A DNA stretch of 34,644 nt from Bacteroidota bacterium (GCA_023440945.1 JAEZRL010000510.1:1-34644), one strand, 5' to 3'. Shown: positions 3,788-34,108, counted from the first letter of the stretch. Translations and numbers: made by a program. The notes: generated by a model from the letters alone, not told the origin.

Positions 3788-3877
3788 TTTTTTGTACTTG
3801 GCTGCATTGCTGCTATTGTACTTCCGTTGTGTCACTCACTTCAAGGTTTTGTTCTTTATTCAGCAAGAATGAAAGCG
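3788..3877 (-). repeat. Intergenic repeat family, copy A
   Basis: Minus-strand core GAAGTGAGTGACACAAC (3826-3842). It has the shared flanking blocks TTGCTG..AAGAACAAAACCTT upstream and ..GCCAAGTAC + A6 downstream. Lies between the divergent GT2 and Rrf2 genes. Extent is approximate. Confidence 0.8.
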
Positions 3878-3944
3878 ATTGACGAAATGTAAAAGTTCCA
3901 ATAATTATAAATAAGTAAGCATCATGTTGTGTATTTTTACGGCG

Positions 3945-4394
3945 ATGCTTTCCAAAAAAACAAAATATGCGATCAATGCGTTAGTTTATTTAGCAAAAAA
4001 TAATACAGGCGAGCCGGTTCAGATAAGTAAGATCGCAGAAAGTGAAAATATTCCCCGCAAATTTCTTGAAGCTATACTTCTTGATCTTCGTAATGCAGGT
4101 ATGCTCAGCAGTAAAAAAGGTAAAACCGGAGGATACTATTTATTGCAAAGCCCGGAAGAAATAAATGTTGCAGAAATAGTCCGTTTGTTTGAAGGTGCTA
4201 TTGCATTACTTCCCTGCGTGGCTCATCGTTATTATGAACGCTGTGAAGAATGTAAAGACGAAGCTACCTGTGGCATCCGCGATGTTTTTTCTGATGTAAG
4301 AAACGAAACCGTTAATATGCTCAAGCAGGCAACTTTGGCGCAGATAATTCAGCGTGAACAGGCGCTCGAAAACTCTCTTAAAAAAATAAAATAA
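3945..4394 (+). CDS. Rrf2 family transcriptional regulator with a 4-Cys cluster
   Basis: Start chosen at MLSKKTKYAINALVYLAK, the typical Rrf2 N-terminus; the ORF track starts 21 nt earlier. It has a wHTH region and Cys91-x8-Cys100-x2-Cys103-x5-Cys109, comparable in position to the IscR/NsrR cluster ligands. Confidence 0.85.
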   Translation: MLSKKTKYAINALVYLAKNNTGEPVQISKIAESENIPRKFLEAILLDLRNAGMLSSKKGKTGGYYLLQSPEEINVAEIVRLFEGAIALLPCVAHRYYERCEECKDEATCGIRDVFSDVRNETVNMLKQATLAQIIQREQALENSLKKIK

Positions 4395-4408
4395 AATTTT
4401 TTTAAATT

Positions 4409-4433
4409 AATTCCTATTAAATCAATAGGAATT
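4409..4433. promoter_or_regulatory. Perfect 10-bp inverted repeat AATTCCTATT-aaatc-AATAGGAATT (candidate operator or terminator stem)
   Basis: Read directly from the sequence. Sits 15 nt after the Rrf2 stop and 26 nt before the DUF2490 start. No T-run follows. Confidence 0.5.
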
Positions 4434-4458
4434 GTAGATTTGATAAAAATTTTAAAAT

Positions 4459-5271
4459 ATGAACAAACAACCAAAACTAACTACACCCTACAAAAAGGCT
4501 GTAAACCAAGTATTCATCTTGCTTATTTTTAGTGCTTTCGCCAATCCTTCAAAAACCATTGCACAAAAAACCCACATTCATCAAACACAATTATGGTATG
4601 CGTATTTCAATACGCTAAAATTTAGTGATAACTATCGTTTAGTTACAGATGTACAGGAAAGACAGTTTATTGAACCGGTTGGTTCGCAAGGAAATTTTAT
4701 TCTTCGTACTATTCTTTATAGGAATCTTGGTAACAACTGGGAAGCCGGTTTAGGGTCGGCACTTTTTTTTAACAGCCCACAGAAAGTTCCTTCTCCCACT
4801 AACACTGTAATACCAGAAATAAGGCCAACACTTGATATCGTGAACAAACAAAAAGTAGGCAAATTAAATATTGGCCATCGTTATCGTGCTGAAGCAAGAT
4901 TTAACCACAATTCATCCGATGGTAAACTTGTTGGTGGCTATACTTTCAGCAATTTTCGTTTTCGCTACCAGATATCTGCTGATTATCCCATTATAAGAAA
5001 TGCAGAGAAAAAAACAATTTTAGCCGTGAAAGTATATGATGAAGTTCATGTGAATTTCGGAAAAAAAATAATCTCCAACTCGTTCGATCAAAACAGAATT
5101 TACGGCGGTTTTACTTACAATGTCAGTAATGCTTTTGCTGTTGATCTTGGTTATCTATTCTGGTTCCAGGAAACAAGTGATGGCAAATCTTATTACGACA
5201 GGAATGTTTTCCGTCTCGGTATAAATCATCGAATTGATTTGAGCAAATCATCTGCTAACAACAAGAAATAA
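4459..5271 (+). CDS. DUF2490-like outer-membrane protein
   Basis: 270 aa with a signal peptide ending TIAQ. QLWYAYFNTLKFSDNYRL..VQERQF.., ..RPTLD.., HRYRAEARF, FRFRYQ and FDQNRIYGGF follow the DUF2490 pattern as I recall it, with alternating beta-strand character. Confidence 0.6.
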   Translation: MNKQPKLTTPYKKAVNQVFILLIFSAFANPSKTIAQKTHIHQTQLWYAYFNTLKFSDNYRLVTDVQERQFIEPVGSQGNFILRTILYRNLGNNWEAGLGSALFFNSPQKVPSPTNTVIPEIRPTLDIVNKQKVGKLNIGHRYRAEARFNHNSSDGKLVGGYTFSNFRFRYQISADYPIIRNAEKKTILAVKVYDEVHVNFGKKIISNSFDQNRIYGGFTYNVSNAFAVDLGYLFWFQETSDGKSYYDRNVFRLGINHRIDLSKSSANNKK

Positions 5272-5316
5272 CCTCGGCAAAAAATACACTTCACTTTTCC
5301 TTTAAAAATTATAAAA

Positions 5317-6282
5317 ATGAATTTCATCAAAAAAGCATTCCTCCCTTTATCTGTGCTTATCGTATTAAATTCCTGCAGTACGAAAGATGATAATAATGAT
5401 AAAGATCAAACAGTTTCTATTTCTTTTTCAGGTGCATTTGCATTATATCCATTAGCGCAAAAATGGGCGGAAGAATACAATAAAACGCACCCAAACATTC
5501 GCTTCGATATTCAGGCAGGTGGTGCGGGAAAAGGATTAACAGATGCGCTTTCCGGTGCAGTTGATGTTGGCATGTTTTCCCGTGAAATAACAGATGCGGA
5601 AAAAGCAAAAGGTGTGTGGTGGATTTCTTTATGTAAAGATGCTGTGCTTCCAACAGTTAATTCATCCAATCCTGATATCAATACATTGCGAACACAGGGA
5701 TTGACCAAAGAACAATTTGAATCAATCTTTACAAACAAACAACCACAAACCTGGGAAAGCCTGTTACGTCTTCCTTCTAAATCATCCAATAAAATCTCCG
5801 TTTATACCCGTGCTGATGCCGCTGGTGCTGCAGATTCCTGGGCCGCATTTTTTGGTAAGAAACAAGAAAACCTGCAGGGCATAGGTGTTTCAGGTGATCC
5901 GGGTGTTGCAGATGCTGTAAGAAAAGATAAGAATGGCATTGGTTACAACAATACATTGTTTGTATTCGACATTAACAGCGGTAAAAAAAATCCGGGTATC
6001 GAAGTGGCGCCTATTGATGTAAATGGCAATGGTAAGATTGATGAAGATGAAAATGTATATACTGATCTAAAAACTTTTTTAGAAGCGGTAAACAATGGAA
6101 AATTCCCTTCCCCGCCTGCACGTGATCTTTACTTTATCACTAAAGGAAAGCCCGTTAAGAAGGAAGTGACAGATTTTTTTAAATGGGTGTTAACGGATGG
6201 ACAAAAATATGTTCAGTCTGCAGGTTATGTGCCTTTGCCTGCCAACACCATTGATGAACAAAAAAGCAAGCTCGATCAATAA
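5317..6282 (+). CDS. pstS: PstS-family phosphate-binding lipoprotein
   Basis: 321 aa with a lipobox (LNSC). SGAFALYPLAQKWAEEY..IQAGGAGKGLTDALSGAVDVGMFSREI is typical of PBP-like-2/PstS proteins. Confidence 0.8.
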   Translation: MNFIKKAFLPLSVLIVLNSCSTKDDNNDKDQTVSISFSGAFALYPLAQKWAEEYNKTHPNIRFDIQAGGAGKGLTDALSGAVDVGMFSREITDAEKAKGVWWISLCKDAVLPTVNSSNPDINTLRTQGLTKEQFESIFTNKQPQTWESLLRLPSKSSNKISVYTRADAAGAADSWAAFFGKKQENLQGIGVSGDPGVADAVRKDKNGIGYNNTLFVFDINSGKKNPGIEVAPIDVNGNGKIDEDENVYTDLKTFLEAVNNGKFPSPPARDLYFITKGKPVKKEVTDFFKWVLTDGQKYVQSAGYVPLPANTIDEQKSKLDQ

Positions 6283-6297
6283 AAAACAGAGGTTCAT

Positions 6298-6346
6298 GCC
6301 GGTAGCGAAAATGGTTACGGTTTATCGAAACGTTACCGGCTTTTTT
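6298..6346 (+). terminator. Intra-operon hairpin between pstS and pstC (attenuator/partial terminator)
   Basis: GCCGGTAGCG (6298-6307) pairs with CGTTACCGGC (6331-6340) with 1 mismatch, followed by TTTTTT (6341-6346). Confidence 0.6.
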
Positions 6347-6369
6347 AAACACTTGCTCAAATGTTTTAA

Positions 6370-7254
6370 ATGAACAGACGAAAATTAATTGACAATATTT
6401 CATCCCGATGGATGTTGCTATGTCTTGTATTTTTTTTATTGTTGCCATTGGCAATAGGTGCAGGACTTGTTTTTAAATCAACTGACTTGTTGCAAAATCA
6501 TTCTATCACTAAACTTATTTTTTCTTCTGACTGGTCGCCGTCAAACGGTCAATTTGGTTTTTGGCCGTTTATCTTAAGTTCTTTATGGGTAACGCTTGCT
6601 GCTTTGCTAATTGCATTGCCTTTGTGTTTACTTGCAAGCATTTATCTTACACAATTTGCACCGGTCTGGATGCTGAAATTTATGCGTCCTGTAATTGATA
6701 TTCTTGCGGGCATTCCTTCTGTTGTTTATGGGGTTTGGGGTGTTCTTGTTATTGTTCCTTTGGTGGGAGATAAAATTGCTCCTTTGTTTCATAAAGAATC
6801 TATTGGTTATAGCATTCTTGCCGGGGCATTGGTTTTGGCAGTAATGAGTATTCCCTACATTTTAAATATGCTGCTTGAAGTATTCAGGCAAATCCCTGTT
6901 GAATTAGGCGAAGCTTCTTTATCACTTGGTGCAACAAAATGGGAAACGATAAAACATGTTTTTATACGTAAAGGTGGAACCGGAATTATATCCTCTTATG
7001 GACTTGGTTTTTCAAAAGCATTGGGAGAAACAATTGCTGTTTTAATGGTTGTTGGCAATGTTGTGCAGAAACCTTCATCGTTGTTTGATGCAGGTTATCC
7101 TTTGCCAGCGCTTATTGCAAATAATTATGGTGAAATGATGTCTATTCCATCTTATGATTCAGCATTAATGTTTGCTTCGCTGGTGCTTTTTGTTATCATT
7201 CTTATCATCAATATTTTTTTCCGTTACCTCATTTATAAATCTGAAGTTGTATGA
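6370..7254 (+). CDS. pstC: Phosphate ABC transporter permease PstC
   Basis: 294 aa, multi-TM, with an EAS.SLGATKWETI.. EAA-loop-type motif. Positioned between pstS and pstA. Confidence 0.85.
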   Translation: MNRRKLIDNISSRWMLLCLVFFLLLPLAIGAGLVFKSTDLLQNHSITKLIFSSDWSPSNGQFGFWPFILSSLWVTLAALLIALPLCLLASIYLTQFAPVWMLKFMRPVIDILAGIPSVVYGVWGVLVIVPLVGDKIAPLFHKESIGYSILAGALVLAVMSIPYILNMLLEVFRQIPVELGEASLSLGATKWETIKHVFIRKGGTGIISSYGLGFSKALGETIAVLMVVGNVVQKPSSLFDAGYPLPALIANNYGEMMSIPSYDSALMFASLVLFVIILIINIFFRYLIYKSEVV

Positions 7255-8087
7255 AGTTATCCCGCAAAATTGAACAAAGTTTTTTCACGTATTTATCTGC
7301 TGCTGTAACACTTGTTATTGTATTGGTGTTGGCCTATATTCTTTTTGTTATCATTAAAAAAGGATACTCTTCTCTCTCCTGGGAAATACTTTCACAGGAA
7401 CCAAAAGGCGGATTTTATTTTGGAAGAGAAGGTGGCATTTTAAATGCAATAACAGGTTCGTTTTATCTGGCTGTGGGTGCAACGATAATCGCTTTTATAG
7501 TGAGTTTACCTGTTGCATTATTTATGAATGTTTATCTTGTACGGTTTCAAAAATTGTTGGTAGGCATTCGTTTTTTTCTCGATGTTTTGTGGGGTATTCC
7601 TTCGATTGTTTATGGCACTTTTGGATTTATTATCTTATTATTTTTTGGATTGAAAAATTCTTTAGGCGCAGGAATGATTACTGTTGCTGCACTTATATCT
7701 CCTATTATGATAAGAGCAATGGATGAAGTTTTAAAAACCATCCCTATCGGTTTACAGGAAGCCGCTTATTCATTAGGCTCTAACAAAACGGAAACCGCTT
7801 ATAAAGTTTTTTTCAGGCAGGCTTTACCGGGATTTGCTACAGCTATTTTACTCGCTTTTGGCAGAGGTATCGGTGATGCAGCTTCTGTTTTATTTACAGC
7901 AGGCTACACAGATCATATTCCACGAAATCTTAGCGATCCAACAGCAACACTTCCTCTTGCCATTTTCTTTCAACTTAGTTCACCGATAGAAGCTGTGCAA
8001 AACCGTGCATTTGCAGCAGCGATCATTCTAACTTTTATTGTTCTCTGTATCAGTATAACATCCCGTTTGTTATACAAAAGAAAATAA
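7251..8087 (+). CDS. pstA: Phosphate ABC transporter permease PstA
   Basis: 278 aa, multi-TM, with motif EAAYSLGSNKTET. The start overlaps the pstC stop (ATGA). Confidence 0.85.
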   Translation: MKLSRKIEQSFFTYLSAAVTLVIVLVLAYILFVIIKKGYSSLSWEILSQEPKGGFYFGREGGILNAITGSFYLAVGATIIAFIVSLPVALFMNVYLVRFQKLLVGIRFFLDVLWGIPSIVYGTFGFIILLFFGLKNSLGAGMITVAALISPIMIRAMDEVLKTIPIGLQEAAYSLGSNKTETAYKVFFRQALPGFATAILLAFGRGIGDAASVLFTAGYTDHIPRNLSDPTATLPLAIFFQLSSPIEAVQNRAFAAAIILTFIVLCISITSRLLYKRK

Positions 8088-8112
8088 AACAATCATTGCT
8101 AAAATCAAACTT

Positions 8113-8916: not shown

Positions 8917-8953
8917 CCTTTTGTTGTTGGGAAGTGTACGTTTGAGCAAACCG

Positions 8954-8980
8954 GCCGTCTTGTCTAAGACGGCTTTTTTT
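8954..8980 (+). terminator. Rho-independent terminator after pstB
   Basis: GCCGTCTT-gtct-AAGACGGC followed by TTTTTTT. Confidence 0.8.
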
Positions 8981-9019
8981 AGAAGACAGAAGATAGGAGA
9001 AAGAAGAATCGCTCACCTT

Positions 9020-9976
9020 TCATATTTCAAGTTTTGCATTTCCAGTTTCGGCTTTCAATGAATATGGTTCAATGAAAATTTGTTTGATAACAGGATATTT
9101 TTCCTGGATGTTCTGTTGAAGCCGTCGTATTGCTTTGATAATATCATCGGTACTAAGCCCTTCTTTAAAGACAGTTTCAAGCACCAATAAAATTTCTTCG
9201 GGAGCAAGGTAAGTAGATAAAGGATAAAAAATTTTTTCAACCGCTTCATCCTGCTGTGCTATTGCTACAACATTTTTCAATATTTCAGGATCAGCAGTTT
9301 CTCCCATCAATAAACTCCGGCTTTCTCTTGCAAGTAATAATGACACTACCGTTAATATCAATCCTATAATAATAGATGCAATACCATCGAAATAGGGATT
9401 ATTATAACGATGACCAAAATAAACACCTGCAAAAGCCACAAGTATGCCTAACACATCAGCTGCATCTTCAAACAACACAACAAAAGTTGCGGGATCTTTA
9501 CTTTTTTTGATTGAACTCCATACAGAACGATCGCCTCTTATTTTATTAAAGTTGCGAAGGGCTACTAAAAAAGATGTGCCGTCAAATAAAAAAGCAACTC
9601 CTAATACAATATAACTCCAGGTAGGATCTTCAATCAATTCGGGCTGCTGCAAATGCGTTATGCCTTCATAAAATGCAATACCGCCGCCAATGCCAAATAT
9701 TAAAATAGAAACAATAAACGACCAAAAGTATAATTCTTTTCCATAGCCGAAAGGACGGTCTTTATCTGCAGGTTTTTTGCTTTTATGTATGCCGAGTAAT
9801 AACAGAATTTCATTGCCGGTATCAACGGTTGAATGTATGCCTTCAGATATCATAGCAGAGCTTCCGCTGATAGCTGCTGCAATAAATTTTGTTATCGCAA
9901 TCGCAAGATTTGCAAACAATGCGCTGTATATAGGAAGTTTTGAAGAAGCCACTTTCCAAGATGCATTCAAAACCAT
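9020..9976 (-). CDS. Cation diffusion facilitator (CDF) family transporter
   Basis: 318 aa with six TM segments. SSAMISEGIHSTVDTGNE and FEDAADVLG are HxxxD/DxxxD-type motifs typical of CDF transporters, and there is a C-terminal cytoplasmic domain. Confidence 0.85.
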   Translation of the reverse strand: MVLNASWKVASSKLPIYSALFANLAIAITKFIAAAISGSSAMISEGIHSTVDTGNEILLLLGIHKSKKPADKDRPFGYGKELYFWSFIVSILIFGIGGGIAFYEGITHLQQPELIEDPTWSYIVLGVAFLFDGTSFLVALRNFNKIRGDRSVWSSIKKSKDPATFVVLFEDAADVLGILVAFAGVYFGHRYNNPYFDGIASIIIGLILTVVSLLLARESRSLLMGETADPEILKNVVAIAQQDEAVEKIFYPLSTYLAPEEILLVLETVFKEGLSTDDIIKAIRRLQQNIQEKYPVIKQIFIEPYSLKAETGNAKLEI

Positions 9977-10053
9977 GCCATCAGGTTCAACAATTCCTAA
10001 TATCCTGATCGAACTGCTGATACTGATATTTAAAAATTTTCATTATGCATTAT

Positions 10054-10084
10054 AAAAAAAGAGCTTGTAAAAACAAGCTCTTTT
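10054..10084 (-). terminator. Terminator after the DUF2911 gene (structurally bidirectional)
   Basis: GAGCTTGT-aaaa-ACAAGCTC flanked by A7 on the plus strand, which is T7 on the minus strand after the stem. Confidence 0.75.
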
Positions 10085-10143
10085 CATTTCAAATAATTTC
10101 AGATCTTTATCAGCAGCATTAGTTTTATCAAGCAATAAAAAAG

Positions 10144-10977: not shown

Positions 10978-11034
10978 AAAAAGTAGTTTTTACAAACGTA
11001 CAATTTGTAAACAGCATTTTACACAGTGCAGTTG

Positions 11035-12222: not shown

Positions 12223-12697
12223 TTTTTTCCATGCAAATTTTCAGGTTACGTCTTCCATTTTGAATAAGGCTTCTTATTTTATTCCATTCAAAACCCGTTA
12301 ATTCAACTATTTCATTATAACATTTGTTCTGTAAATAAAAAAGCTCAATGCTTTGCTTTTGTTCTGCCGGAAGCTTTTCTATACAATGCTCTAGTTTCTT
12401 TAGCTCCTGCTCTTTTTCCAGCACATTATCAAGATGCGAAAAATCTTCTGATTGCATAACGGTAGAAGGAAATTCAACCGTTATCATTTTCTTTTCCTTT
12501 CGCAGTTGCATCAAACAAAAATTCTTTGCTACAGCATACAACCAGCTTTTAAAATTATCAATATTATGTTGTGGAACTTTCTGCAATAATTCTTCATAAA
12601 TACTCATCACCGCATCTTTTGCAGCTTCTTCATCCAGGTATTTTACGCAAACGCCATAAGTTAAGTCAACATAACGCAGGTAAAGACGAGCAAGCAT
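12212..12697 (-). CDS. ECF-type RNA polymerase sigma-70 factor (N-terminus apparently truncated)
   Basis: 161 aa with region 2 (WLYAVAKNFCLMQLRK) and region 4 (LPAEQKQSIELFYLQNKCYNEIVELTG..IRSLIQNGRRNL). See the finding on the in-frame TAG upstream. Confidence 0.85.
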   Translation of the reverse strand: MLARLYLRYVDLTYGVCVKYLDEEAAKDAVMSIYEELLQKVPQHNIDNFKSWLYAVAKNFCLMQLRKEKKMITVEFPSTVMQSEDFSHLDNVLEKEQELKKLEHCIEKLPAEQKQSIELFYLQNKCYNEIVELTGFEWNKIRSLIQNGRRNLKICMEKNGR

Positions 12698-12787
12698 TTC
12701 CTGCTCACCCGTTTGCTTGAAAGCGAGAAATAATTCCTAATCTGTTTCCGGCGCTTTTTCTATGTGTTTTGCAGATATCAAATACTA

Positions 12788-12882
12788 TTTTTTCTATGTT
12801 GTACTTAGCGTTGTTGCTACTATTATACTTTGTTGTGCCACTCACTTGTACTGCAGTAATCGCTTCAGCAGCTTTCAAAAAG
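12788..12882 (-). repeat. Intergenic repeat family, copy D
   Basis: Minus-strand core CAAGTGAGTGGCACAAC (12832-12848). Shares CTTTTTGAAAGCTGCTG with copy B upstream and AATAGTAGCAAC..GCTAAGTAC with copies A and E downstream. Confidence 0.8.
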
Positions 12883-16133: not shown

Positions 16134-16197
16134 ATAGCATTTGAAAATAAGATCAATATTAAAACAACTAAGTAATTGAACGTGTTATGCATGATGT

Positions 16198-16315
16198 TAT
16201 ATTTTTTGTTACCAGCATTTGTGCTCATAGCATCGTCCCTTGCGTCGCACTCTTCATCTTCAGATCATTACGCGGCTTTGGTTTCAACTTCAAGAACGGT
16301 TAACAAAAATTATTA
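16198..16315 (-). repeat. Intergenic repeat family, copy F (best-defined inverted termini)
   Basis: Minus-strand core GAAGAGTGCGACGCAAG (16239-16255). Termini are ATTTTTTGTTACC (16201-16213) and GGTTAACAAAAAT (16298-16310, reverse complement ATTTTTGTTAACC). Confidence 0.8.
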
Positions 16316-16419
16316 CAGGCTGCAATAAAAACAATTTTGGAATTACTGTAAACACTTGCGATATTGCCCGTGATAAGTTTTTGTTTCTTATTTTTCTCAC
16401 GCATTCTTACACTCGCATC

Positions 16420-16999: not shown

Positions 17000-17079
17000 T
17001 TGTTGAGTTACTTATTACAGTAAAAGTGTGCGACGCAACCGAAGAATAATAGTAGCAATGCAGATGGGTTCAAAAAAAA
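17000..17079 (+). repeat. Intergenic repeat family, copy E
   Basis: Plus-strand core AAAGTGTGCGACGCAAC (17023-17039), with TTGTTG upstream and AATAGTAGCAATGCAG..GGGTTC + A8 downstream. Lies between convergent gene ends. Confidence 0.8.
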
Positions 17080-18822: not shown

Positions 18823-19392
18823 ATGAAAATTACAAAAGCTGTTATCATATCGCTTGTATTACTTGTTCTTGTTTCAGCATTGTACAGAATATTTCCAAAC
18901 AGACCCTACGGCTTTGCTCCGCAATACGCCATGGCAATTTTTGGCGGAGTTATTTTTCGTAAAAACAAAAGCTGGGCTTTTATCCTGCCTTTGTTATCCA
19001 TGTTTTTAAGCGATCTGTTGTACGAAGTTTTATATAGCAGCGGTGCTTCTGTAATGCCGGGTTTTTACCAGGGACAATGGCAAAATTATTTATTGATCGG
19101 TTTATTAGCATCAATTGGTTTTCTGATTAAGAAGGTAAACGTGCTCAACGTATTTATTGCATCCATTGCTTCACCAACTGTTTACTTTTTATTGTCCAAT
19201 TTAGTTGTTTGGGCAGGCGGCGGCGGATGGCATCATCCTAAAACTTTCGATGGTTTGATGCTAACCTATCAGGATGCCTTACCCTTCTATCCAAACAGTT
19301 TATATGCAACTGTTTTCTTCTCTGCTATATTGTTTGGCGGTTATTATTCTATAAAGAACTATTGGCTGAGCAAACAAACGCAGACAGCATAA
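18823..19392 (+). CDS. DUF6580-like integral membrane protein
   Basis: ATG chosen at 18823 (MKITKAVIISLVLLVL). About 5-6 TM segments. FAPQYAMAIFGG and LSNLVVW resemble the DUF6580 putative transport family as recalled. Confidence 0.55.
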   Translation: MKITKAVIISLVLLVLVSALYRIFPNRPYGFAPQYAMAIFGGVIFRKNKSWAFILPLLSMFLSDLLYEVLYSSGASVMPGFYQGQWQNYLLIGLLASIGFLIKKVNVLNVFIASIASPTVYFLLSNLVVWAGGGGWHHPKTFDGLMLTYQDALPFYPNSLYATVFFSAILFGGYYSIKNYWLSKQTQTA

Positions 19393-19410
19393 AAATTTTT
19401 CATGACACAT

Positions 19411-19444
19411 AAAAAAATCCGGAGCAATAGTTCCGGATTTTTTG
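19411..19444. terminator. Bidirectional terminator between DUF6580 gene and rnhA
   Basis: A7-ATCCGGA-gcaatagt-TCCGGAT-T7; serves both convergent genes. Confidence 0.8.
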
Positions 19445-19445
19445 T

Positions 19446-19928
19446 TTAGAGCAAAGTATTCGTATCGCCTTCATAACCTTCGTCAATTAGCAGGTTTCTG
19501 CCCATAGCAGCCTGGGTTGCCAGTTCATCACAGCGGTTGTTGAAGGAATTATCAGCATGGCCTTTCACCCATTTTAAAGCAACCTGGTAGTTTCTTGCGA
19601 GTTTATAATAACGAAGCCAGAGATCTTTATTTTTTTTACCGCCTTTAAAATCGGTTCTTATCCAGCCATCAAGCCATTTTTTTTCAATGCTGTTAACTAC
19701 GTACTGACTATCTGTATAAATCGTAAGCGGAATATTTGTTTTTGTTAATGATTCCAGTGCGACAATCACGGCCAGTAATTCCATGCGGTTGTTGGTTGTT
19801 AACCGGTAGCCAGCGGAAAGTTCCTTACGTTTATCGCCCCACATTAAAATAACGCCATAGCCACCTGGGCCGGGATTGCCTCTTGAGGAACCGTCAGTAT
19901 AAATAATTAATGGATGAGATTGTTGCAT
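19446..19928 (-). CDS. rnhA: Ribonuclease HI
   Basis: Start at MQQSHPLIIYTDGSSRGNPGPGGYG. The 33 extra codons in the track run through repeat copy H. Contains DGS..GNPGPGG, NNRMEL, YTDSQYV and VKGHA motifs. Confidence 0.9.
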   Translation of the reverse strand: MQQSHPLIIYTDGSSRGNPGPGGYGVILMWGDKRKELSAGYRLTTNNRMELLAVIVALESLTKTNIPLTIYTDSQYVVNSIEKKWLDGWIRTDFKGGKKNKDLWLRYYKLARNYQVALKWVKGHADNSFNNRCDELATQAAMGRNLLIDEGYEGDTNTLL

Positions 19929-19930
19929 AA

Positions 19931-20033
19931 GTATTTTTTGGTGAGCGGCTTTTGTAACTCCGGTTAAACATCGTTGCGTCGCATTACGTTCATCTTTTGT
20001 ACTACTATTAAACAATTGATCCGGCAAAAATAA
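19931..20033 (-). repeat. Intergenic repeat family, copy H
   Basis: Minus-strand core GAACGTAATGCGACGCAAC (19973-19991). Its A6 run ends 5 nt before the rnhA ATG. Termini are TATTTTTTGG (19932-19941) and CCGGCAAAAATA (20021-20032). Confidence 0.75.
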
Positions 20034-20217
20034 GGGGATAAGATGCTGAAAAATTTTTAAACAAATAATGGTTTTTTAGCGGCGCCGAAGTCAATACTTC
20101 GTAATCGTCTTTTTATTGTGAAGCTTAAACTCCTTCACCTTATAAAACATTGTTTCTGCCTATGCCTGTAAACATTTGTAAACTAATGTGGTCTTTTTTT
20201 TGAAATATACATATAAA

Positions 20218-20312
20218 TATTTTTTGAAAGCTTTGCTGCGTAATGAACAGGAAGTTGAAGTGAGTGACACAACGATGCTTGTTAACAGCACAGGTGCCGG
20301 GTACAAAAAATG
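20218..20312 (+). repeat. Intergenic repeat family, copy B
   Basis: Plus-strand core GAAGTGAGTGACACAAC (20257-20273). The left end is TATTTTTTGAAAGCTTTGCTGCGTAATGAACAGGAAGTT and the right end is GCCGGGTAC + A6 (20305-20310). Confidence 0.8.
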
Positions 20313-23205: not shown

Positions 23206-23207
23206 GT

Positions 23208-24095: not shown

Positions 24096-24123
24096 GATAC
24101 TTGCAACTGTGAACCTTAAAAAA

Positions 24124-26619: not shown

Positions 26620-26703
26620 GCGTCTTTTTTAATCTTTCTCGTCTATCGGATGTTAATATTTTATTTCTGCGCTTTAGCAAAATCAGGATCAGCTAAACAG
26701 GTG

Positions 26704-26729: not shown

Positions 26730-26771
26730 ACAAATTACACTAAGGTACTTTTATGCTTCAAAAATTCTGAT

Positions 26772-28004
26772 ATGAATACAATTGATACCTTGTTTGTACC
26801 TGATTTACAGCCAGCTTTAAAGCATCCAACCATCCTGAAAAAGTTTGATGATTTAAACAACGGTGATTCATTTTTATTAGTTAACGATCATGATCCTATA
26901 CCCTTATATTATGAAATGAAAGCAGAGAAAGGAGATGTGTTTGAATGGAAAAAAATTGAAAGCGGTCCTGAAGTTTGGAAAGTGGAGATAACAAAAAAGA
27001 ACAATTCATCCTGTTCTGTTAACCCTATAAAGGAAGAAGAAACAAAACAGAAAGAAAAAGAAGAAACGTTTGTTTTAAATGTAACGCTCATTGAGCCTAA
27101 ACTAAAGCATCCTACCATCTTCAAACATTTTGATGCGTTGGAAGAAGGGAGGGCTTTCCAGATATTAAATGATCATGATCCAAAGCCTTTGTATTACCAA
27201 TTATTGGGCGAAAGAGGAAATATTTTCACCTGGACTTACCTCGAAAAAGGTCCGCAATGGTGGCGTGTACAAATAAAAAAGAATGATTCGCAAAGTGGTG
27301 AAACTGTTGGCGAGATTGCAGCGAAAGATCTGCGCAAAGCAGAAGTGTTTAAAAAATATGGAATTGATTTTTGCTGCGGCGGAAAGAAATCTTTGAAACA
27401 AGCCTGCGAAGAAAAAGGCATTGATGTAGCTGTTGTGGAAGCTGAGTTACAGAATCCAACACAACAGGTTCAATCTGCAAATAATTATAATGCATGGGAA
27501 CCCGATTTTTTAGCTGATTATATTTACAATCAGCATCATCTTTATTATTACAATGAAGTGCCACGCATACAGGAAGTGTTTGCAAAAGTAGTTGGTCATC
27601 ATGGCGCTAATCATCCTGAGCTGAAATATTTATACCAGCTTTTTGGCGAATTACTGCAGGAATTGAATGTTCATTTTATGCGTGAAGAAAAAGTGGTGTT
27701 TCCATTTATCAAAGCACTTGTTACTGCAAAAAGAAGTGGTAATCGTGATGCTCTGAATAGTCAGCCTTCACTTACTGAACCCGTTAGAATGATGGAAGTG
27801 GATCACGAAGCAGCAGGCGATATTTTAGCTGAAATGAAACAGGTTGCAAAGGATTATAATCCACCAGCAGATGCCTGCAACAGTTATCAATTTCTATATA
27901 AGAAATTAAATGAACTGGATGAAGATCTGCATCAGCATATTCATCTTGAAAACAATATTCTCTTTCCAAAAGCATTGAAGCTGGAACTGGAATTGCGCAA
28001 ATAA
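26772..28004 (+). CDS. Fusion protein: two DUF2249 domains + iron-sulfur cluster repair di-iron protein (RIC/ScdA/YtfE-type)
   Basis: Start at MNTIDTLF. Two copies of the pattern KHPTI..FD.L..G..F.L.NDHDP.PLYY......G..F.W.....GP..W.V.I.K (DUF2249). These are followed by the ScdA_N motif YGIDFCCGG and hemerythrin-type His/Glu motifs (HHLYYYNEV, HFMREEKVVFP, EVDHEAAG, HQHIHLENNILFP). Confidence 0.8.
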   Translation: MNTIDTLFVPDLQPALKHPTILKKFDDLNNGDSFLLVNDHDPIPLYYEMKAEKGDVFEWKKIESGPEVWKVEITKKNNSSCSVNPIKEEETKQKEKEETFVLNVTLIEPKLKHPTIFKHFDALEEGRAFQILNDHDPKPLYYQLLGERGNIFTWTYLEKGPQWWRVQIKKNDSQSGETVGEIAAKDLRKAEVFKKYGIDFCCGGKKSLKQACEEKGIDVAVVEAELQNPTQQVQSANNYNAWEPDFLADYIYNQHHLYYYNEVPRIQEVFAKVVGHHGANHPELKYLYQLFGELLQELNVHFMREEKVVFPFIKALVTAKRSGNRDALNSQPSLTEPVRMMEVDHEAAGDILAEMKQVAKDYNPPADACNSYQFLYKKLNELDEDLHQHIHLENNILFPKALKLELELRK

Positions 28005-28014
28005 ATTTCTCAAA

Positions 28015-28060
28015 CATGTTCCGGTGACTATAACCGGAGCATGTTCGTTGTTTATTTTTT
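28015..28060 (+). terminator. Terminator after the RIC fusion gene
   Basis: CATGTTCCGG-tgactataa-CCGGAGCATG (10 bp including one G-T pair) followed by TTCGTTGTTTATTTTTT. Confidence 0.65.
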
Positions 28061-28132
28061 GTACCCCGCTTTTGAATATGCATCAAGCTTTGGTTGCGTC
28101 GCACACTTGTACTTCCGGTTCTTTAGCAACAA
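28055..28132 (-). repeat. Intergenic repeat family, copy G
   Basis: Minus-strand core CAAGTGTGCGACGCAAC (28093-28109), with TTGTTGCT upstream and GCGGGGTAC + A6 downstream. Lies antisense between two plus-strand genes. Confidence 0.8.
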
Positions 28133-28161
28133 TTAAACAGAATTGAATTTAGTTTTATAAA

Positions 28162-28968: not shown

Positions 28969-30257
28969 TGGCAGGTTTTATAAACGATACAAGCGCAGTT
29001 AGAAATACTTCTTACAAAATTGTTGTTCCCTTTTATGTTTATGCTGCACTTTCTTTTTTAACGGCAACACTGCTTTTATTTTTTTCTTCGCATGCTTTTA
29101 CTGGCCATTATTTTCAACCACATATTCTTGCCGTTACGCATACCATGGCTTTGGGTTGGGGAACGATGATTATTTTAGGTGCAAGTTATCAGCTTGTTCC
29201 TGTTTTAATAGAAGCTGAATTACACAGCAATCTTCTTGCTTATTTATCCTTTGCCTTTGCAGCATTAGGCATACCACTTTTAGTGTTTGCATTTTATACT
29301 TTCCAGCTACATTGGATAGCTATTGCAGGAGCCGTTTTTATCAACGGAGCAATACTTTTTTATGTTATCAATTTAGCGCTTAGTCTTTCAAAAAGTAAAA
29401 ATGAAAATGTTCACGCCGTTTTTGTCCTTACCGCATCATTGTGGCTTTTTATTACAACCTTAATTGGCTTATTACTTGTTTGTAATTTCACGCATTCCAT
29501 TTTTACTAAAGATTCTTTACATTATTTATCCCTTCATGCTCATATCGGCATTGTTGGCTGGTTTTTATTGTTAATTACAGGCGTTGGTTCAAGATTGATA
29601 CCTATGTTTCTTATCTCAAAATATGATAATCCAAAACGACTTTGGTTAATTTATTATTTAATAAATATTGGTTTGGTTTTATTTATCATCTTTTTCTTTT
29701 TAAACTTTTCTGTAATTATTTACCTGCTTCCTGTTATCGCTTTATTAGCAGCATTAGTATTGTTCATTTTATATTGCAGAAAAGCTTACAAACTGCGTAT
29801 CCGCAAAAAAGTAGATGAGCAAATGAAGCTTTCTCTTCTTTCTGTTTTGATGGTATTGCTTCCTGTTATTGTGTTGCTTGTATTGATAATTTTATTGTTG
29901 TTTACTGAAATGAATGTAAAGCTGGTACTTGTTTATGGTTTCACTATTTTCTTTGGATGGATAACAGCTATCATTTTTGGAATGACCTTTAAAACACTTC
30001 CTTTCATCATCTGGAATAAAAATTATCATGATAAGGCAGGCAATATAAAAACGCCCAATCCGAAAGATCTTTTCAGTGACACAATTTTTAAAAGCATGGG
30101 CTGGAGTTATTTAACAGGCTTTGGTCTTTTTGTTGCCGGTATATTAATGTCGAACAATTTTGTTTTGCAGATAGCAACGATTTTATTGCTTTTGACAGCG
30201 ATTTTATACAACTGGAATGTATTGAAATTACTCATGCATAAACCCGTGATGAAATGA
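28968..30257 (+). CDS. 12-TM membrane protein resembling heme-copper oxidase subunit I (function unknown)
   Basis: 429 aa with about 12 hydrophobic helices. Motif (H)-x4-GW-x6-G-x4/5-L-x-P recurs in TM2, TM6 and TM10, with His in TM2 (THT) and a His pair in TM6 (LHAHIG). The start overlaps the upstream stop (TAATG). Confidence 0.6.
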   Translation: MAGFINDTSAVRNTSYKIVVPFYVYAALSFLTATLLLFFSSHAFTGHYFQPHILAVTHTMALGWGTMIILGASYQLVPVLIEAELHSNLLAYLSFAFAALGIPLLVFAFYTFQLHWIAIAGAVFINGAILFYVINLALSLSKSKNENVHAVFVLTASLWLFITTLIGLLLVCNFTHSIFTKDSLHYLSLHAHIGIVGWFLLLITGVGSRLIPMFLISKYDNPKRLWLIYYLINIGLVLFIIFFFLNFSVIIYLLPVIALLAALVLFILYCRKAYKLRIRKKVDEQMKLSLLSVLMVLLPVIVLLVLIILLLFTEMNVKLVLVYGFTIFFGWITAIIFGMTFKTLPFIIWNKNYHDKAGNIKTPNPKDLFSDTIFKSMGWSYLTGFGLFVAGILMSNNFVLQIATILLLLTAILYNWNVLKLLMHKPVMK

Positions 30258-30580
30258 GTGAAGTAATAACCAACAATAATATCAAATGCACTATTGCGTT
30301 AGCAGCATTACAACATGTAATTGACCCTGAAATAGGATTAAATATTGTTGACCTTGGCCTGGTTTATCAAATTGATTTTGATGAAGAAGGTAAAGAAATT
30401 TTCATTTCGATGACGCTTACCACGCAATACTGCCCGATGGGTGCAAGTATAAGAGATGGCGCAGAAAGAGCATTGCAAAATGCTTTCCCCGATTATTTCA
30501 TACATCTTGAATTAGTATTTGATCCACCGTGGAGACCAGATAGAATTTCTGAAGAAGGCCAGGCATTTTTGAACCAATAA
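30254..30580 (+). CDS. DUF59 (MIP18/SufT-like) metal-sulfur cluster assembly factor
   Basis: 108 aa. IDPEIGLNIVDLGLVY....MTLTTQYCPMG is the canonical DUF59 pattern. The start overlaps the upstream stop (ATGA). Confidence 0.85.
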   Translation: MSEVITNNNIKCTIALAALQHVIDPEIGLNIVDLGLVYQIDFDEEGKEIFISMTLTTQYCPMGASIRDGAERALQNAFPDYFIHLELVFDPPWRPDRISEEGQAFLNQ

Positions 30581-30700
30581 TTCAAGTCCTATTATGAATT
30601 GAAAAGCTTAACCTTCATTAGCGGAGTTTTTTAACATTAATACCATTTTCTATTATAAGCAGGGTTCAGTTTTTGATGTCTGTAACATAAATTATATGTT

Positions 30701-30805
30701 ATGTTTAGTATGCTTTTTTTCATTTTTGTTGCAATGATTGTTCTTGCTGTTTTTATTTTTATATGGGTAAGACGGCAACAGCATAAAAACAATACCCTGC
30801 GATAG
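30701..30805 (+). CDS. Possible 34-aa single-TM peptide (unannotated small ORF)
   Basis: ATG..TAG encoding MFSMLFFIFVAMIVLAVFIFIWVRRQQHKNNTLR, a hydrophobic helix followed by a basic tail. Lies 120 nt downstream of the DUF59 gene on the same strand. No other support. Confidence 0.25.
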   Translation: MFSMLFFIFVAMIVLAVFIFIWVRRQQHKNNTLR

Positions 30806-30895
30806 TTGAAAGATGAATAATTCTATTCAAATAAGTTTTTCTGCTTTTCCTGTATAAAATACTCATCTTATACAACATGCTTTTATAGTTGTATG

Positions 30896-32050
30896 TTACC
30901 ACTTAACAACTGTAAAAACAATAGAAGAATAATTGTTCTTTTCATACAATATTCCAATCCTTTTATTATCGAGTTGCACAATATCACTATAAGCTGAATT
31001 ATCTGCTGCGCCTGTTTTATCAATCACAACATTTTTTTGCCAGGTTTTACCATCATCAAAGCTTATACGCAAGGTTAGGTTATCTCTTATTGAAGTATCA
31101 GCGTTATTGCAGAAGGCGAGTATATTTTTCTGTTTTTTCTTTCCGATCGTAAGAATGCTTCCTTCGCAAACAGGATCAGGAAGTTGTTCATCAAAATAAG
31201 CTGTATCCCATTTCACGCCGCCATTATTGCTTATGGCAACGATTCTTGATTTGATATCGCCTTTTTGGTTGCGGATATTCATCATAAGCTTATTGTTTGA
31301 TAAGGCTGCTGCTGTTGCTTCATTACTGCCATCAATAGGAATATTATCACTTAAGTGAAAAGTTTTTCCGTGATCATCCGTATAAAAACCATGCGCTTTG
31401 TAATCAGAAAAATCTGGCATTGGCTCGCCTTCTGAATGATTAGCTGCCACATACATTCTTCCTTTATAATTTCCTTCTTCAAACTGCATTGCATGGCCGG
31501 GAGTGTTCGCATAACTTCTCCAATCTTCTGTGAAATTGTAAGCACTATTTATTGAAGGCTGTTTTGGTTTATGAACTTCTAAAGTTATGTTCACTGCATC
31601 ACTCCATGTTTCGCCATTATCCGTTGATGTTTTATACCAAACTTCACGCAAACCATTTCCTTTTCTCACTTCGTGTTCATTGTTATTGCCTGTGTTATAA
31701 AATAAAAATATTCTTCCGTTTGAATAAGCCGGATCACTTCTGTCAACAACAGGTGCAGGATTACCTGCTTGTTTTGTTTTATTGTCCGCAATTACCTTCA
31801 AAACGCTCCAGGTTTTTCCGCCATCCTTACTTCTCTTCATTACAATATCTACATCACCGTAATCCGCTGCATTATCAACTCTGCCTTCACAAAAAGCAAG
31901 AAGATCGTTATTGGGAGCACGAATAATTGCCGGAATGCGATAACTTTTATATCCATCCATTCCCGAAACAAAAACTGGAATAATTTGTTGCGATAACACT
32001 GTTATAGAAATGGAAACAAGCGCAATTGTTATCAACAGTAATTTCTTCAT
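30896..32050 (-). CDS. Exo-alpha-sialidase (GH33, BNR/Asp-box repeats)
   Basis: 384 aa with a signal peptide and an FRIP-type motif YRIP. Asp-boxes are SKDGGKTW, STDNGETW, TDDHGKTF, SNNGGVKW and SFDDGKTW. Confidence 0.88.
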   Translation of the reverse strand: MKKLLLITIALVSISITVLSQQIIPVFVSGMDGYKSYRIPAIIRAPNNDLLAFCEGRVDNAADYGDVDIVMKRSKDGGKTWSVLKVIADNKTKQAGNPAPVVDRSDPAYSNGRIFLFYNTGNNNEHEVRKGNGLREVWYKTSTDNGETWSDAVNITLEVHKPKQPSINSAYNFTEDWRSYANTPGHAMQFEEGNYKGRMYVAANHSEGEPMPDFSDYKAHGFYTDDHGKTFHLSDNIPIDGSNEATAAALSNNKLMMNIRNQKGDIKSRIVAISNNGGVKWDTAYFDEQLPDPVCEGSILTIGKKKQKNILAFCNNADTSIRDNLTLRISFDDGKTWQKNVVIDKTGAADNSAYSDIVQLDNKRIGILYEKNNYSSIVFTVVKW

Positions 32051-32071
32051 GAATTGATTTTAGCGGAAAAG

Positions 32072-33340
32072 TTAACTAAACTGAGAAAGATTTAGTTTCG
32101 GGTCTAATCTATCACCTGAAAAATACACTTCATCCCAGGTCATTTCTCTTTGTCTTGTAGCAGAATCTCTTCCAAGAATGGCGGTAAGTGTTGATTCTGC
32201 TCCGGATCGTGTTTCATTCAAATAATTTCCTGTTTCAATGCTTTTTACAAAAGCTATGTCTTTATTTGAATCCGCATCATGCAGCGAAGAACTAAAAACG
32301 CCTGATGCTCTTTGCTGCTCAGTAAGTTCAGCCGCACTTTTTGCAATGCCGGAATCCCATTTATTTTCTCCTTCAATAAAAACACCGCCGCTGTAGTGTG
32401 CTTCTGCAAAACCTTTCGTGCCGAGAAATCTGCAGCACACATCCCCAAATGCGGGTCCTACTTTTGTTGTGTGTATGCTTACGTTTACATTATTCGGATA
32501 TTGATAAACAACCTGGAAATTACTAAATGTATCGCCAAGGTCGGGAAGACCTGAATCGTTTGCTCTTCCAATTGCATTCAAGGGATGATTTTTTAATGCC
32601 CAGTTACAAACATCAAGCATGTGAATACCCTGGTCTAAAATAATATCTCCGCACATAGCACGATAAAAATAATGATTCCGTATTCTTACTTCATCATAGG
32701 ATGCATTCTTATTCACTGGTACCCATGTTGCACCTGATGAAAGATAATAAAGCTGTACAGTTATCAAATCGCCAATATCACCACGCTGAATTCTGTTAAC
32801 CATTTCTGCATACGCACTTGCATAACGTATCTGGAAACCGATTGCCACACTTTGTTTGCCATTTAATTTTTGTCCGGCTTCTATCACTCTTCTGCATCCG
32901 TCTGCATCCGTTGCAACAGGTTTTTCGCAATACACATGTTTTCCTGCAGCGACAGCAGCTTCAAGAAATTCAACATGACTATATGCAGGAGAAGAGATAA
33001 GCACTGCATCCACATCTTTGTTATTTAACAATTGCAGATAGGCTTTTGAACCACGATAAATATTTTGTTTGCTCAATGCAGGAAAATTTTTCTTTGTATT
33101 CAATTCATTAAAATTTTTTTCTCCTGCCAGAAGTTTATCTTCGAAAAGATCTGCAATGGCAATAATGTTCGTGTTTGTATTTGCAGATATGGAAGATATT
33201 ACGGCTGTACCCCTGTTGCCACAGCCGATAACACCAAAACGTATAGCAGAATTAGCTTTTGATCCGAAAACAATGTCTGGTCTTAAAATAGAAAAAGCAG
33301 AGATAGTGGCGGTGCTTTTAATAAAATTTCTTCTTTGCAT
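32072..33340 (-). CDS. Gfo/Idh/MocA family oxidoreductase with Tat signal (GH109-like architecture)
   Basis: Start chosen at MQRRNFIKSTATISAFSIL (twin-arginine motif); the track starts 16 codons earlier. Rossmann motif IRFGVIGCGNRG. Confidence 0.8.
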   Translation of the reverse strand: MQRRNFIKSTATISAFSILRPDIVFGSKANSAIRFGVIGCGNRGTAVISSISANTNTNIIAIADLFEDKLLAGEKNFNELNTKKNFPALSKQNIYRGSKAYLQLLNNKDVDAVLISSPAYSHVEFLEAAVAAGKHVYCEKPVATDADGCRRVIEAGQKLNGKQSVAIGFQIRYASAYAEMVNRIQRGDIGDLITVQLYYLSSGATWVPVNKNASYDEVRIRNHYFYRAMCGDIILDQGIHMLDVCNWALKNHPLNAIGRANDSGLPDLGDTFSNFQVVYQYPNNVNVSIHTTKVGPAFGDVCCRFLGTKGFAEAHYSGGVFIEGENKWDSGIAKSAAELTEQQRASGVFSSSLHDADSNKDIAFVKSIETGNYLNETRSGAESTLTAILGRDSATRQREMTWDEVYFSGDRLDPKLNLSQFS

Positions 33341-33500
33341 GATCTTGTTCGTTAGATTTTGGTAAGATGATAAGAAAACATGATTCATCTAATATATTTC
33401 AAAACATTTATATGGCAAGTTTTATACAGATATAACCGTTTGAAATATTCGAAAGATGCGCTAAGCAATTTTTTATATTGCAGTATAAACCAAACACATT

Positions 33501-33971
33501 ATGAGAAATTTTACAGGCTTTGTTGCAATGCTCCTGCTTTTTGCATCATGCAATACAACGATAAGCAGGGAAGAAACAAAAACTTCAAAACTACCGATAG
33601 AAGGCACGTGGAAATTACTTACAGGAACACTTGTTGAAAAAGGAGATACAACTGTTACCGATTATACAAAAGGGAAGGAATTTATAAAGATCATTAACGC
33701 AACGCATTTTGCTTTTTTAAGCCATGATCTCAATAAAGGAAAAGATTCTGCTACTGCTGAATATTCATCCGGTGGTGGAACTTACACTTTGAATGATGAT
33801 GCTTATACAGAAAATCTTGAATATTGCAGTGCAAGAGAATGGGAAGGAAACAGCTTTAATTTTATAATTACTATTAATAATGATACATTGATACAACAAG
33901 GCGTAGAAAAGATTGACAGTCTTGGCGTTAACAGGATAAACACAGAGAAATATGTTCGTGTGAAAAATTGA
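33501..33971 (+). CDS. Lipocalin-like lipoprotein (hypothetical)
   Basis: 156 aa with lipobox LLFASC. GTWKLLTG...THFAF...GGGTYTL resembles lipocalin-like domain proteins of Bacteroidota. Confidence 0.55.
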   Translation: MRNFTGFVAMLLLFASCNTTISREETKTSKLPIEGTWKLLTGTLVEKGDTTVTDYTKGKEFIKIINATHFAFLSHDLNKGKDSATAEYSSGGGTYTLNDDAYTENLEYCSAREWEGNSFNFIITINNDTLIQQGVEKIDSLGVNRINTEKYVRVKN

Positions 33972-34028
33972 TGTGGGATAAAATCTTGTTATATAGAATT
34001 GAATACGTTTAATAGTAAATCCAAAATT

Positions 34029-34108
34029 TTGTTTAATAATGAACAGAACCTTGAAGTGAGTGACACAAGAGGCGATGCCATAAAAAGCCGGTGCCGGGAA
34101 CATAAAAA
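34029..34108 (+). repeat. Intergenic repeat family, copy C
   Basis: Plus-strand core GAAGTGAGTGACACAAG (34053-34069), with TTGTTTAATAATGAACAGAACCTT upstream and GCCGGGAAC-ATAAAAA downstream. Confidence 0.8.

Follow-up and report, generated by a model that had tools for sequence, protein, structure and literature searches.

What is the short sequence that recurs between the genes of this Bacteroidota bacterium, and how did it come to be there? The question is raised by a 34,644 nucleotide (nt) stretch of DNA (GCA_023440945.1, JAEZRL010000510.1:1-34644), which was analyzed over its whole length and is called the window hereafter. A preliminary description of the window had pointed to eight copies, A to H, of a dispersed intergenic repeat with a conserved core. 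The repeat family is real: its units share a defined anatomy, are restricted to intergenic regions in orientations independent of gene direction, form head-to-head dimers, differ in abundance between lineages, and fill gaps that are empty in relatives. With confidence a little better than even, we regard the unit as a non-autonomous dispersed repeat resembling the repetitive extragenic palindromic (REP) sequences, bacterial interspersed mosaic elements (BIMEs) and enterobacterial repetitive intergenic consensus (ERIC) sequences, which would be co-transcribed within untranslated regions (UTRs) and whose core is probably the site of a trans-acting protein. The family apparently has not been described so far.

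Detection, anatomy and distribution of the unit

The window was searched by two profile methods. An nhmmer profile iterated on the window and 110 fetched loci gave eight matches with E-values between 1.6e-15 and 1e-6, the next match lying at E = 3.9. A covariance model (CM), built from the eight window copies alone and searched with filters off, also gave eight matches (E = 3.9e-17 to 4.7e-10; next, E = 0.31), and the same model retrieved 137 copies from 100 unrelated loci. Each method recovered precisely the eight copies reported before, every further match being at chance level. With no more than two mismatches allowed, the degenerate core AAGTGWGYGACRCAA matched the window seven times versus 0.42 times expected, a count reached in none of 100 shuffles. 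The claim of a dispersed intergenic family with a conserved core was therefore borne out by nhmmer, the CM and the shuffles, and the coordinates, strands and core strings given for the eight copies were all exact on re-reading. Three weaker candidates proposed at 348-369, 8931-8950 and 983-1010 are not members of the family; the only one to surface with nhmmer did so at 992-1016 with E = 29.

The consensus of ~182 copies from genome loci reads GCTGAATAAAG..CA.AAC, followed by GTTGAAGTGAGTGACACAAC, ~23 variable nt, GCTGGTTAC and AAAAAA. The unit is asymmetric and ~80 nt long (the family model spans ~78-80 nt), consisting of a GCTGAATAAAG-like 5′ block, a 20 nt core, the variable segment, a GCYGGTWAC block and an A-run, and conservation drops sharply at both of its ends. 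This agrees with the block order of the preliminary description, namely TTGCTG, AATGAACAG, core, variable segment, GCCGGGTAC and A6. The forward strand is A-rich, with 37% A versus 22% T. Additional internal repeats and stems were considered and rejected. An outer stem GTTG/CAAC is broken by a GTAC variant without compensation, and a build from four sub-repeats that each begin with GYTGAA, or from direct repeats on either side of the core, shows in the subfamily of one genome but is not general. The similarity of the 5′ block to the mid-block is 0.55 versus 0.50 in shuffled sequence.

The core occurs in two types, which the preliminary description had missed together with the head-to-head pairing rule and the position rule at gene boundaries that are described below. 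Type I is GTTGAAGTGAGTGACACAAC, written (G)TTGAAGTGAGTGACACAAC, and type II is GTACAAGTGTGCGACGCAAC, written (G)TACAAGTGTGCGACGCAAC; in the window, A, B, C and D carry type I and E, F, G and H type II. Both types keep a 7-9 nt palindrome, G-Y-G-A-C-R-C, centered on one A. Its inner pair was T-A in 131, C-G in 50 and another combination in one of the 182 copies from genome loci, and C-G in 178, T-A in 25 and mixed in none of the 203 from metagenome loci. In the CM alignment of 137 copies, the inner pair was C-G in 79, U-A in 57 and another in one, the middle G-C pair was invariant (137/137), and the outer pair formed in type II only. Columns G30, G32, C36 and A38 of the core were fixed in 182/182 copies, and the flanking columns were near saturation. 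Since the other core columns are equally invariant, the switch between T-A and C-G may be a single historical double change that split two subfamilies; as evidence for base pairing or dyad recognition it is suggestive, not strong.

An RNA element is one reading of such a unit, either a family of small RNA (sRNA) genes or a riboswitch-like cis-regulatory RNA. The intergenic location, the terminator-like hairpins found within ~50 nt after C and G, and the small core stem with one compensatory change speak for it. However, single copies folded no better than their shuffles (z = -0.3 to +1.8), a fold signal was absent over 80 copies (mean z of -0.43 forward and -0.36 reverse), RNAalifold predicted 0 pairs, and the only helix supported in the CM alignment comprises 2-3 bp closing a 3 nt loop. 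A cmscan of the whole window at E <= 1 against Rfam 15, whose families cover riboswitches, sRNAs, Flavo-1 and Bacteroid-type motifs among others, returned two tRNAs and a sub-threshold Termite-leu match, none of them at a unit. Neither a conserved promoter nor a conserved terminator appears in the family model, and the units are oriented at random relative to genes. A structured RNA is thus very improbable. A small open reading frame (ORF) or signal peptide was also rejected, because six-frame translations show stops and no common frame.

The Termite-leu match (19383-19456, plus strand; 29.3 bits versus a gathering score of 51) coincides with a terminator-like hairpin in the gap where the DUF6580 and RNase H genes converge, and is in all likelihood due to chance.

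The preliminary description could not assign the repeat to any known family, and this held up against Rfam 15 at E <= 1 and in the searched full-text literature, which contained neither the core sequence nor an account of such a repeat in Chitinophagaceae. A link to RNA-guided transcription by dCas12f-sigmaE was considered and dropped: the paper on that system reports no conserved motif at its target sites and does not describe the repeat (PMC13472631).

To what extent is the unit shared? Genome loci were seeded with the type I core 18-mer and metagenome loci with the type II 18-mer, so that the two sets act as replicates. Among the matches listed, the exact type I 18-mer was present in >110 stretches of species-representative genomes and the exact type II 18-mer in >120 metagenome contigs, and ~400 copies were collected in total. 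Almost all of the listed core matches were labeled Chitinophagaceae or Chitinophagales. The genera among them were Ferruginibacter, Segetibacter, Chitinophaga, Niastella, Filimonas, Flavihumibacter, Sediminibacterium, Flavisolibacter, Hydrotalea, Niabella, Ginsengibacter and Parafilimonas, and many other listed matches were metagenome-assembled genomes (MAGs) labeled Chitinophagaceae or Chitinophagales without a genus name. Exact cores were also found in contigs L017 and L047 (labeled Bosea thiooxidans MAG) and L107 (labeled Nitrososphaeraceae archaeon MAG). The Bosea- and Nitrososphaeraceae-labeled contigs are probably mis-binned, and the repeat could help as a lineage marker when bins are checked. 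The family Chitinophagaceae is abundant in soil, rhizosphere, freshwater and activated sludge.

The earlier expectation that the element would be very abundant stands insofar as it is common across Chitinophagaceae, but its density is uneven. The window holds eight units in 34.6 kb, versus 2, 0 and 0 in 20 kb stretches of three relatives, which were chosen through the YkgJ protein and hence independently of the repeat. Because the density differs between genomes in this way, extrapolating that of the window to the whole family is unsafe.

Placement relative to genes and head-to-head dimers

The genes of the fetched loci were mapped by naive ORF calling from the first ATG with a minimum of 100 aa, for which stop distances are robust and start distances approximate. 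Unit midpoints fell within ORFs in 8/182 cases in the genome loci, where ORFs cover 84.5% of the sequence, and in 3/223 cases in the metagenome loci, where they cover 81%. Units are therefore depleted ~20-fold in coding sequence, a comparison that the preliminary description had suggested. Its statement that all copies in the window are intergenic is true for real genes; the mechanical ORFs running over B, H and F are start-codon extensions. Orientation was independent of gene direction in the genome loci, with 45 tandem-sense, 49 tandem-antisense, 25 divergent and 21 convergent copies.

The position of the unit within the gap follows a rule. In most solo units the A-run end, and not the 5′ end, lay closer to a gene, with 75 versus 26 cases in the genome loci (p = 1e-6) and 70 versus 31 in the metagenome loci (p = 1e-4). 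In tandem gaps, sense copies lay at a median of 36 nt from the downstream start codon and antisense copies at a median of 28 nt from the upstream stop codon. Stop codons were found within ~10 nt of the A-run end in 26/78 cases, often with a T-run directly after them. The T-run belongs to the unit, since stop codons without a unit seldom have one: a T5 run lies within 15 nt of 7% of unit-free stops. The same figure led us to reject insertion targeted to pre-existing A/T-runs at gene ends. We infer that the copies are co-transcribed and would ride passively in transcripts, sense copies in 5′ UTRs with the A-run beside the start codon and antisense copies in 3′ UTRs, where the T-run would follow directly on the stop codon.

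Could the unit instead serve the gene that its A-run faces, as an alternative promoter read by a sigma factor of the extracytoplasmic function (ECF) type or as a standard 5′ leader? Of the window copies, A, D, F, H and B face a downstream gene, H and B ending a few nt before start codons; many forward copies elsewhere end 3-60 nt before an ATG, and a GAAC-N16-(C/T)GAC arrangement can be seen by eye in some copies. Half of the copies, however, cannot serve a gene in this way (49 tandem-antisense and 21 convergent). In the window, E and C lie in convergent gaps, and G is antisense between tandem genes. The putative -35 element GAAC is present in a minority of copies, columns 11-14 holding <0.8 bit, and an ECF-like promoter GAAC-N16-CGAC was rejected because this part is not conserved and the orientation is random. 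The standard Bacteroidetes sigma-A promoter, which has TTTG at -33 and TAnnTTTG at -7 and faces a gene, was rejected as well: the -7 box TAnnTTTG was not found at a fixed distance, its positions around 159 units showed no peak on either strand, and the units are oriented at random. A sigma-54 promoter was considered on account of TGGCAC in D and rejected, as G occurs at that column in only 2/182 copies. We consider a promoter or leader function highly unlikely. An intrinsic terminator was likewise rejected: the unit lacks a hairpin, its T-run leads when it is read in reverse, and 25 units lie in divergent gaps. A T-run following a neighboring hairpin was seen only in G.

Pairs of units less than 400 nt apart are almost uniformly arranged. 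With head-to-head defined as 5′ ends facing each other and A-runs pointing outward, 22/24 close pairs in the genome loci and 40/40 in the metagenome loci were head-to-head, i.e. 62/64 overall in ~1.5 Mb, and tandem pairs were absent (0/64). The pairs occur in all gap types, with spacers ranging from overlap to ~120 nt. Had the position rule acted on each copy independently, ~40% of pairs would be in other arrangements, so the dimer has to be regarded as a separate entity. Compact head-to-head dimers measure 146-190 nt, and dimers fold back on themselves with a mean z of -5.1, so that the inverted arms may form duplexes. A preference for heterodimers of types I and II was considered and dropped, because the two data sets disagree.

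Other arrangements and elements were seen around the pairs. Contig L114 carries a rare tail-to-tail pair at 926-1003(+) and 1011-1090(-). Spacers of head-to-head pairs often hold a second type of repeat, hairpins of the form (A)CCACAGAG...CTCTGTGG(T) or CACAGATGA...TCATCTGTG, for example in L024 (~515-610), L047 (~7733-7800), L022 (~1135-1220), L027 (~1969-2189) and L061 (~4123-4195). CACAGAG and CTCTGTG occur on the 5′ side of units only. No pair in the window bears a spacer hairpin.

The head-to-head and position rules provide experimental handles in the culturable Chitinophaga pinensis, Niastella koreensis, Segetibacter koreensis and Ferruginibacter paludis.

Gain, loss and constraint

The window derives from an uncultured member of Chitinophagaceae. 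Contigs of the same species are 99.9% identical, and the nearest syntenic genome stretch is ~70% identical to the window. Comparison of orthologous gaps showed that units come and go. A syntenic Ferruginibacter stretch (L077) lacks both E and F, and F is also absent from L115, L117 and L118. The xerD-ykgJ gap, which harbors F in the window, measures 189, 67 and 90 nt in the three relatives fetched through YkgJ and only 67-90 nt in L117 and L118. The ykgJ-UPF0102 gap, which harbors E, is 0 nt in L117 and L118, and the third relative has another gene after ykgJ. In L114, which is 81% identical, the ortholog of F is present with a decayed core. In L115, which is 76% identical and was located via a protein and not via the core, the ortholog of E has an intact core within unalignable flanks.

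In L114, xerD is found downstream of ykgJ, not upstream and divergent as in the window, and the breakpoint coincides with unit F (window 16134-16323 versus L114 900-1140 and 1764-2047). The repeat may thus matter for genome assembly, coinciding as it does with one rearrangement breakpoint.

One filled and empty pair of sites bears on the direction of change. In L208, a type II unit (9814-9893) plus ~45 nt lies between two aldehyde dehydrogenase (ALDH)-like genes, directly after the stop codon, and the counterpart genes in L025 are 13 nt apart. L208 still has the original gene end CAATAA on the downstream side of the insert, which argues for insertion rather than deletion. The two sites are compatible with a duplication of (C/T)AAT, which as a single pair is no proof. 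At the same junction, L067 carries a type I unit (3168-3244), either by a type switch in place or by two independent insertions at the same spot.

One Flavihumibacter MAG has a homogeneous subfamily of its own: copies from separate loci share 88-93% identity along the full unit, versus a mean of 57% in the family, the similarity ending at the unit borders. The non-autonomous repeat that we favor would accordingly be gained and lost in intergenic DNA and amplified to very different numbers per genome, with mobility as the inferred cause, and its near-invariant core would most likely be recognized by a trans-acting protein that spreads or maintains the element.

Several findings weigh against this reading. 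The eight copies in the window include no near-identical pair and have a mean column identity of 57%, whereas the cores have stayed intact, a picture closer to purifying selection in place than to a recent burst. The gap between holB and PSP1 contains a unit in nine species (forward in 5, a pair in 2 and reverse only in 2), a pattern that fits an old head-to-head pair with differential loss, and units recur upstream of maeB (5 loci) and of htpG; such conservation of gaps is partly ascertained, because the loci were selected through an intact core. The position rule, with the A-run end at the gene boundary, is not predicted by simple random insertion. Single insertions of dimers with matching arms were rejected, since the arms resemble one another no more than random copies do (0.48 versus 0.44 and 0.43 versus 0.445), and decay of dimers into solo units was rejected because there are no partner remnants beside 117 solos. 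Direct repeats of at least 4 nt flanked 25 dimers four times versus 1.7 times expected from shuffled pairings, and a target-site duplication was not detected. The two ends of the unit (GCTGAAT... and ...GGTTACAAAAAA) lack complementarity and form no terminal inverted repeats. In ~0.86 Mb of fragments, neither a neighboring transposase nor any other recurrent candidate gene was found, the recurrent neighbors being orthologous housekeeping genes, and no gene for RAYT, the Y1 transposase of REPs, lay between or beside units. The collections of plasmids, phages and IMG/VR contained zero copies, and a parent autonomous element with matching ends was found neither there nor in the sampled loci.

These points bring in a host-maintained cis element, a platform for a DNA- or RNA-binding protein specific to Chitinophagaceae, for example a nucleoid-associated or UTR-binding one. 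Selection would act at gene boundaries, and the look of a repeat would result from independent recruitments or from an old mobile element that was domesticated. The contrast between the near-invariant core and its near-saturated flanks favors such an element, as do the concerted switch of the inner pair, with a mixed state in 1/182, 0/203 and 1/137 copies, the intact core of the E ortholog in L115, the retention of units at holB-PSP1 and maeB, and the A-run ends at gene starts and stops. On the other hand, the same gaps are empty in relatives and too short to have held a unit, the density varies from 0 to 8 per 20-35 kb, and the variable regions are homogenized within one genome, which a binding-site model does not predict. 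Moreover, the F ortholog in L114 has lost its core to decay, units at the same orthologous gap differ in orientation between species, and the switch of the inner pair may be one historical event instead of repeated compensation. We regard a host-maintained element as the principal rival and a serious one, though rather unlikely. It and the dispersed repeat are not mutually exclusive.

A more far-reaching proposal is that the unit is a selected gene-boundary element of Chitinophagaceae, the core of which is read by a dedicated protein or guide RNA in a post-transcriptional network of hundreds of genes. We think this improbable. If it were true, sense copies in 5′ UTRs and antisense copies in 3′ UTRs, which are perfectly complementary over the core, could pair in trans and dimers in cis, linking hundreds of genes, for instance through RNase III cleavage or translation control.

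The copies in the window and known repeat systems

The window has a G+C content of 35.8%. Where the preliminary description located copies it was right, whereas its limits for F (16198-16315) and H overshoot the model by ~20-40 nt on the 5′ side. Its statement that most gaps longer than 200 nt carry a unit holds for 6/9 such gaps, and G sits in a gap of 157 nt. Among the three unit-free gaps of this size is one of 325 nt (2317-2641) beside the genes for tRNA-Leu(TAA) and tRNA-Gly(GCC), which lie at 2122-2316 on the minus strand. The repeat fills a large share of the longer gaps and distorts gene calling, as three mechanical ORFs were falsely extended through units.

Three copies lie in divergent gaps on the minus strand. 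Unit A (3788..3866; nhmmer E = 1.6e-14, CM E = 5.4e-15) has the type I core GTTGAAGTGAGTGACACAAC at ~3826-3845; its A-run end points towards the gene ending at 3667 or 3352, and its 5′ end is 57 nt from the start of an Rrf2-like gene at 3924. Unit D (12799..12870, previously given as 12788-12882; nhmmer E = 7.3e-9, CM E = 1.6e-14), between an ECF sigma gene and a VWA gene, is of type I with a GTAC start and the loop variant GGC (GTACAAGTGAGTGGCACAAC). Unit F (16202..16276; nhmmer E = 4.4e-11, CM E = 1.2e-12) has the type II core GAAGAGTGCGACGCAAG and separates xerD from ykgJ. A contig of the same species has the ECF sigma gene beside D called at 189 aa, with a start corresponding to window position 12781, 7 nt from D; in the window, a TAG interrupts the frame 12698-12781 (minus strand) upstream of the ATG at 12697, which is either a strain difference or an artifact of the caller.

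Unit E (17001..17078, plus strand; nhmmer E = 1.2e-10, CM E = 1.2e-13) has the type II core AAAGTGTGCGACGCAAC and sits in the gap where ykgJ and the UPF0102 gene converge. Units H and B form a head-to-head pair (19934..20310) with a 218 nt spacer and are an example of the inverted dimer typical of the family, combining a type II with a type I core. H (19934..20014, minus strand; nhmmer E = 1e-6, CM E = 4.7e-10) is of type II, its core being degenerate in the 5′ half (..GTAATGCGACGCAAC), and its A-run end is 5 nt from the start codon of the RNase H gene. B (20233..20310, plus strand; nhmmer E = 1.6e-15, CM E = 3.9e-17) has a type I core and is located upstream of a gene for a 1005 aa outer-membrane protein with CarboxypepD_reg and OMP_b-brl_3 domains, the likely start of which is MNLLKII at ~20350.

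Unit G (28055..28125, minus strand; nhmmer E = 2.8e-11, CM E = 8.8e-14) has the type II core CAAGTGTGCGACGCAAC and lies between tandem plus-strand genes, antisense to both. On the plus strand, its T-run (28047-28060) comes immediately after the hairpin (28013-28045) that serves as terminator of the upstream gene, which ends at 28004, and the run may double as the U-tract of this terminator. Unit C (34029..34108, plus strand; nhmmer E = 1.2e-12, CM E = 3.1e-12) has a type I core ending in G (GAAGTGAGTGACACAAG) and lies in a convergent gap, where a bidirectional terminator hairpin is found at 34149-34185, 40 nt past the A-run.

How does the family compare with the repeats known from other bacteria? 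Among REPs, head-to-head dimers predominate and head-to-tail ones are missing (PMC3733652). The Chitinophagaceae unit resembles the REP, BIME and REPIN sequences of Enterobacteria and Pseudomonas in being extragenic, high in copy number and present in both orientations, with head-to-head dimers dominant and head-to-tail ones absent. Two sequence types can combine in one dimer, singlets occur beside dimers, and the size of the family varies by species, as in REPs and BIMEs. The criteria for REPs, however, are imperfect palindromes of 20-40 nt whose stems measure 5-13 bp and bear an unpaired GTAG or CGTC tag at one end (PMC3733652). Our unit is ~80 nt long, non-palindromic save for the 7-9 nt motif and devoid of a fold signal; no RAYT-like gene lies beside units in the fragments scanned, and dimer arms do not co-vary. 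Identity with the CGTC-tagged REPs of that study (PMC3733652) was rejected, since CGTC occurs only as part of the mini-palindrome, in type II cores read on the opposite strand (GCGTCGC), and does not flank a stem of 8-9 bp.

The family also shares features with the MITEs (miniature inverted-repeat transposable elements) exemplified by Correia/NEMIS in Neisseria and RUP in Streptococcus. Like these, it is small, non-coding and intergenic, is present or absent at orthologous sites, expands in lineage-specific bursts and may land in UTRs and beside stop codons. Unlike MITEs, it has no terminal inverted repeats, no target-site duplication that we could detect and no parent insertion sequence in the material searched, and the copies in the genome of the window are old and diverged except in the core. 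The unit is not filed as a REP or a MITE, because of its length of ~80 nt, its asymmetry, the lack of a fold and of terminal inverted repeats, and the absence of a RAYT partner among the fragments.

ERIC, also known as the intergenic repeat unit (IRU), is a 127 nt intergenic repeat that occurs throughout the enterobacterial family, is transcribed with neighboring genes and varies in location between species. Our family is similarly intergenic and conserved over a whole bacterial family, and its compact dimers are imperfect fold-back palindromes of similar size. ERIC is a single imperfect palindrome, whereas our unit is one asymmetric arm that often stands alone (at least 101 solo units with genes on both sides). 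The two are not known to be related in sequence, and the comparison with Rfam gave no match. The BOX elements of Streptococcus pneumoniae are modular (boxA-boxB-boxC), have extensive secondary structure and belong to one genus. The unit is like BOX in its modular conserved blocks with variable spacing and in being intergenic and non-coding, and differs from it in being unstructured and spanning a whole family. Behavior like that of REPs without a hairpin, inverted ends or a visible transposase would point to a new mechanism of mobilization or maintenance, or to a core that the cell has recruited.

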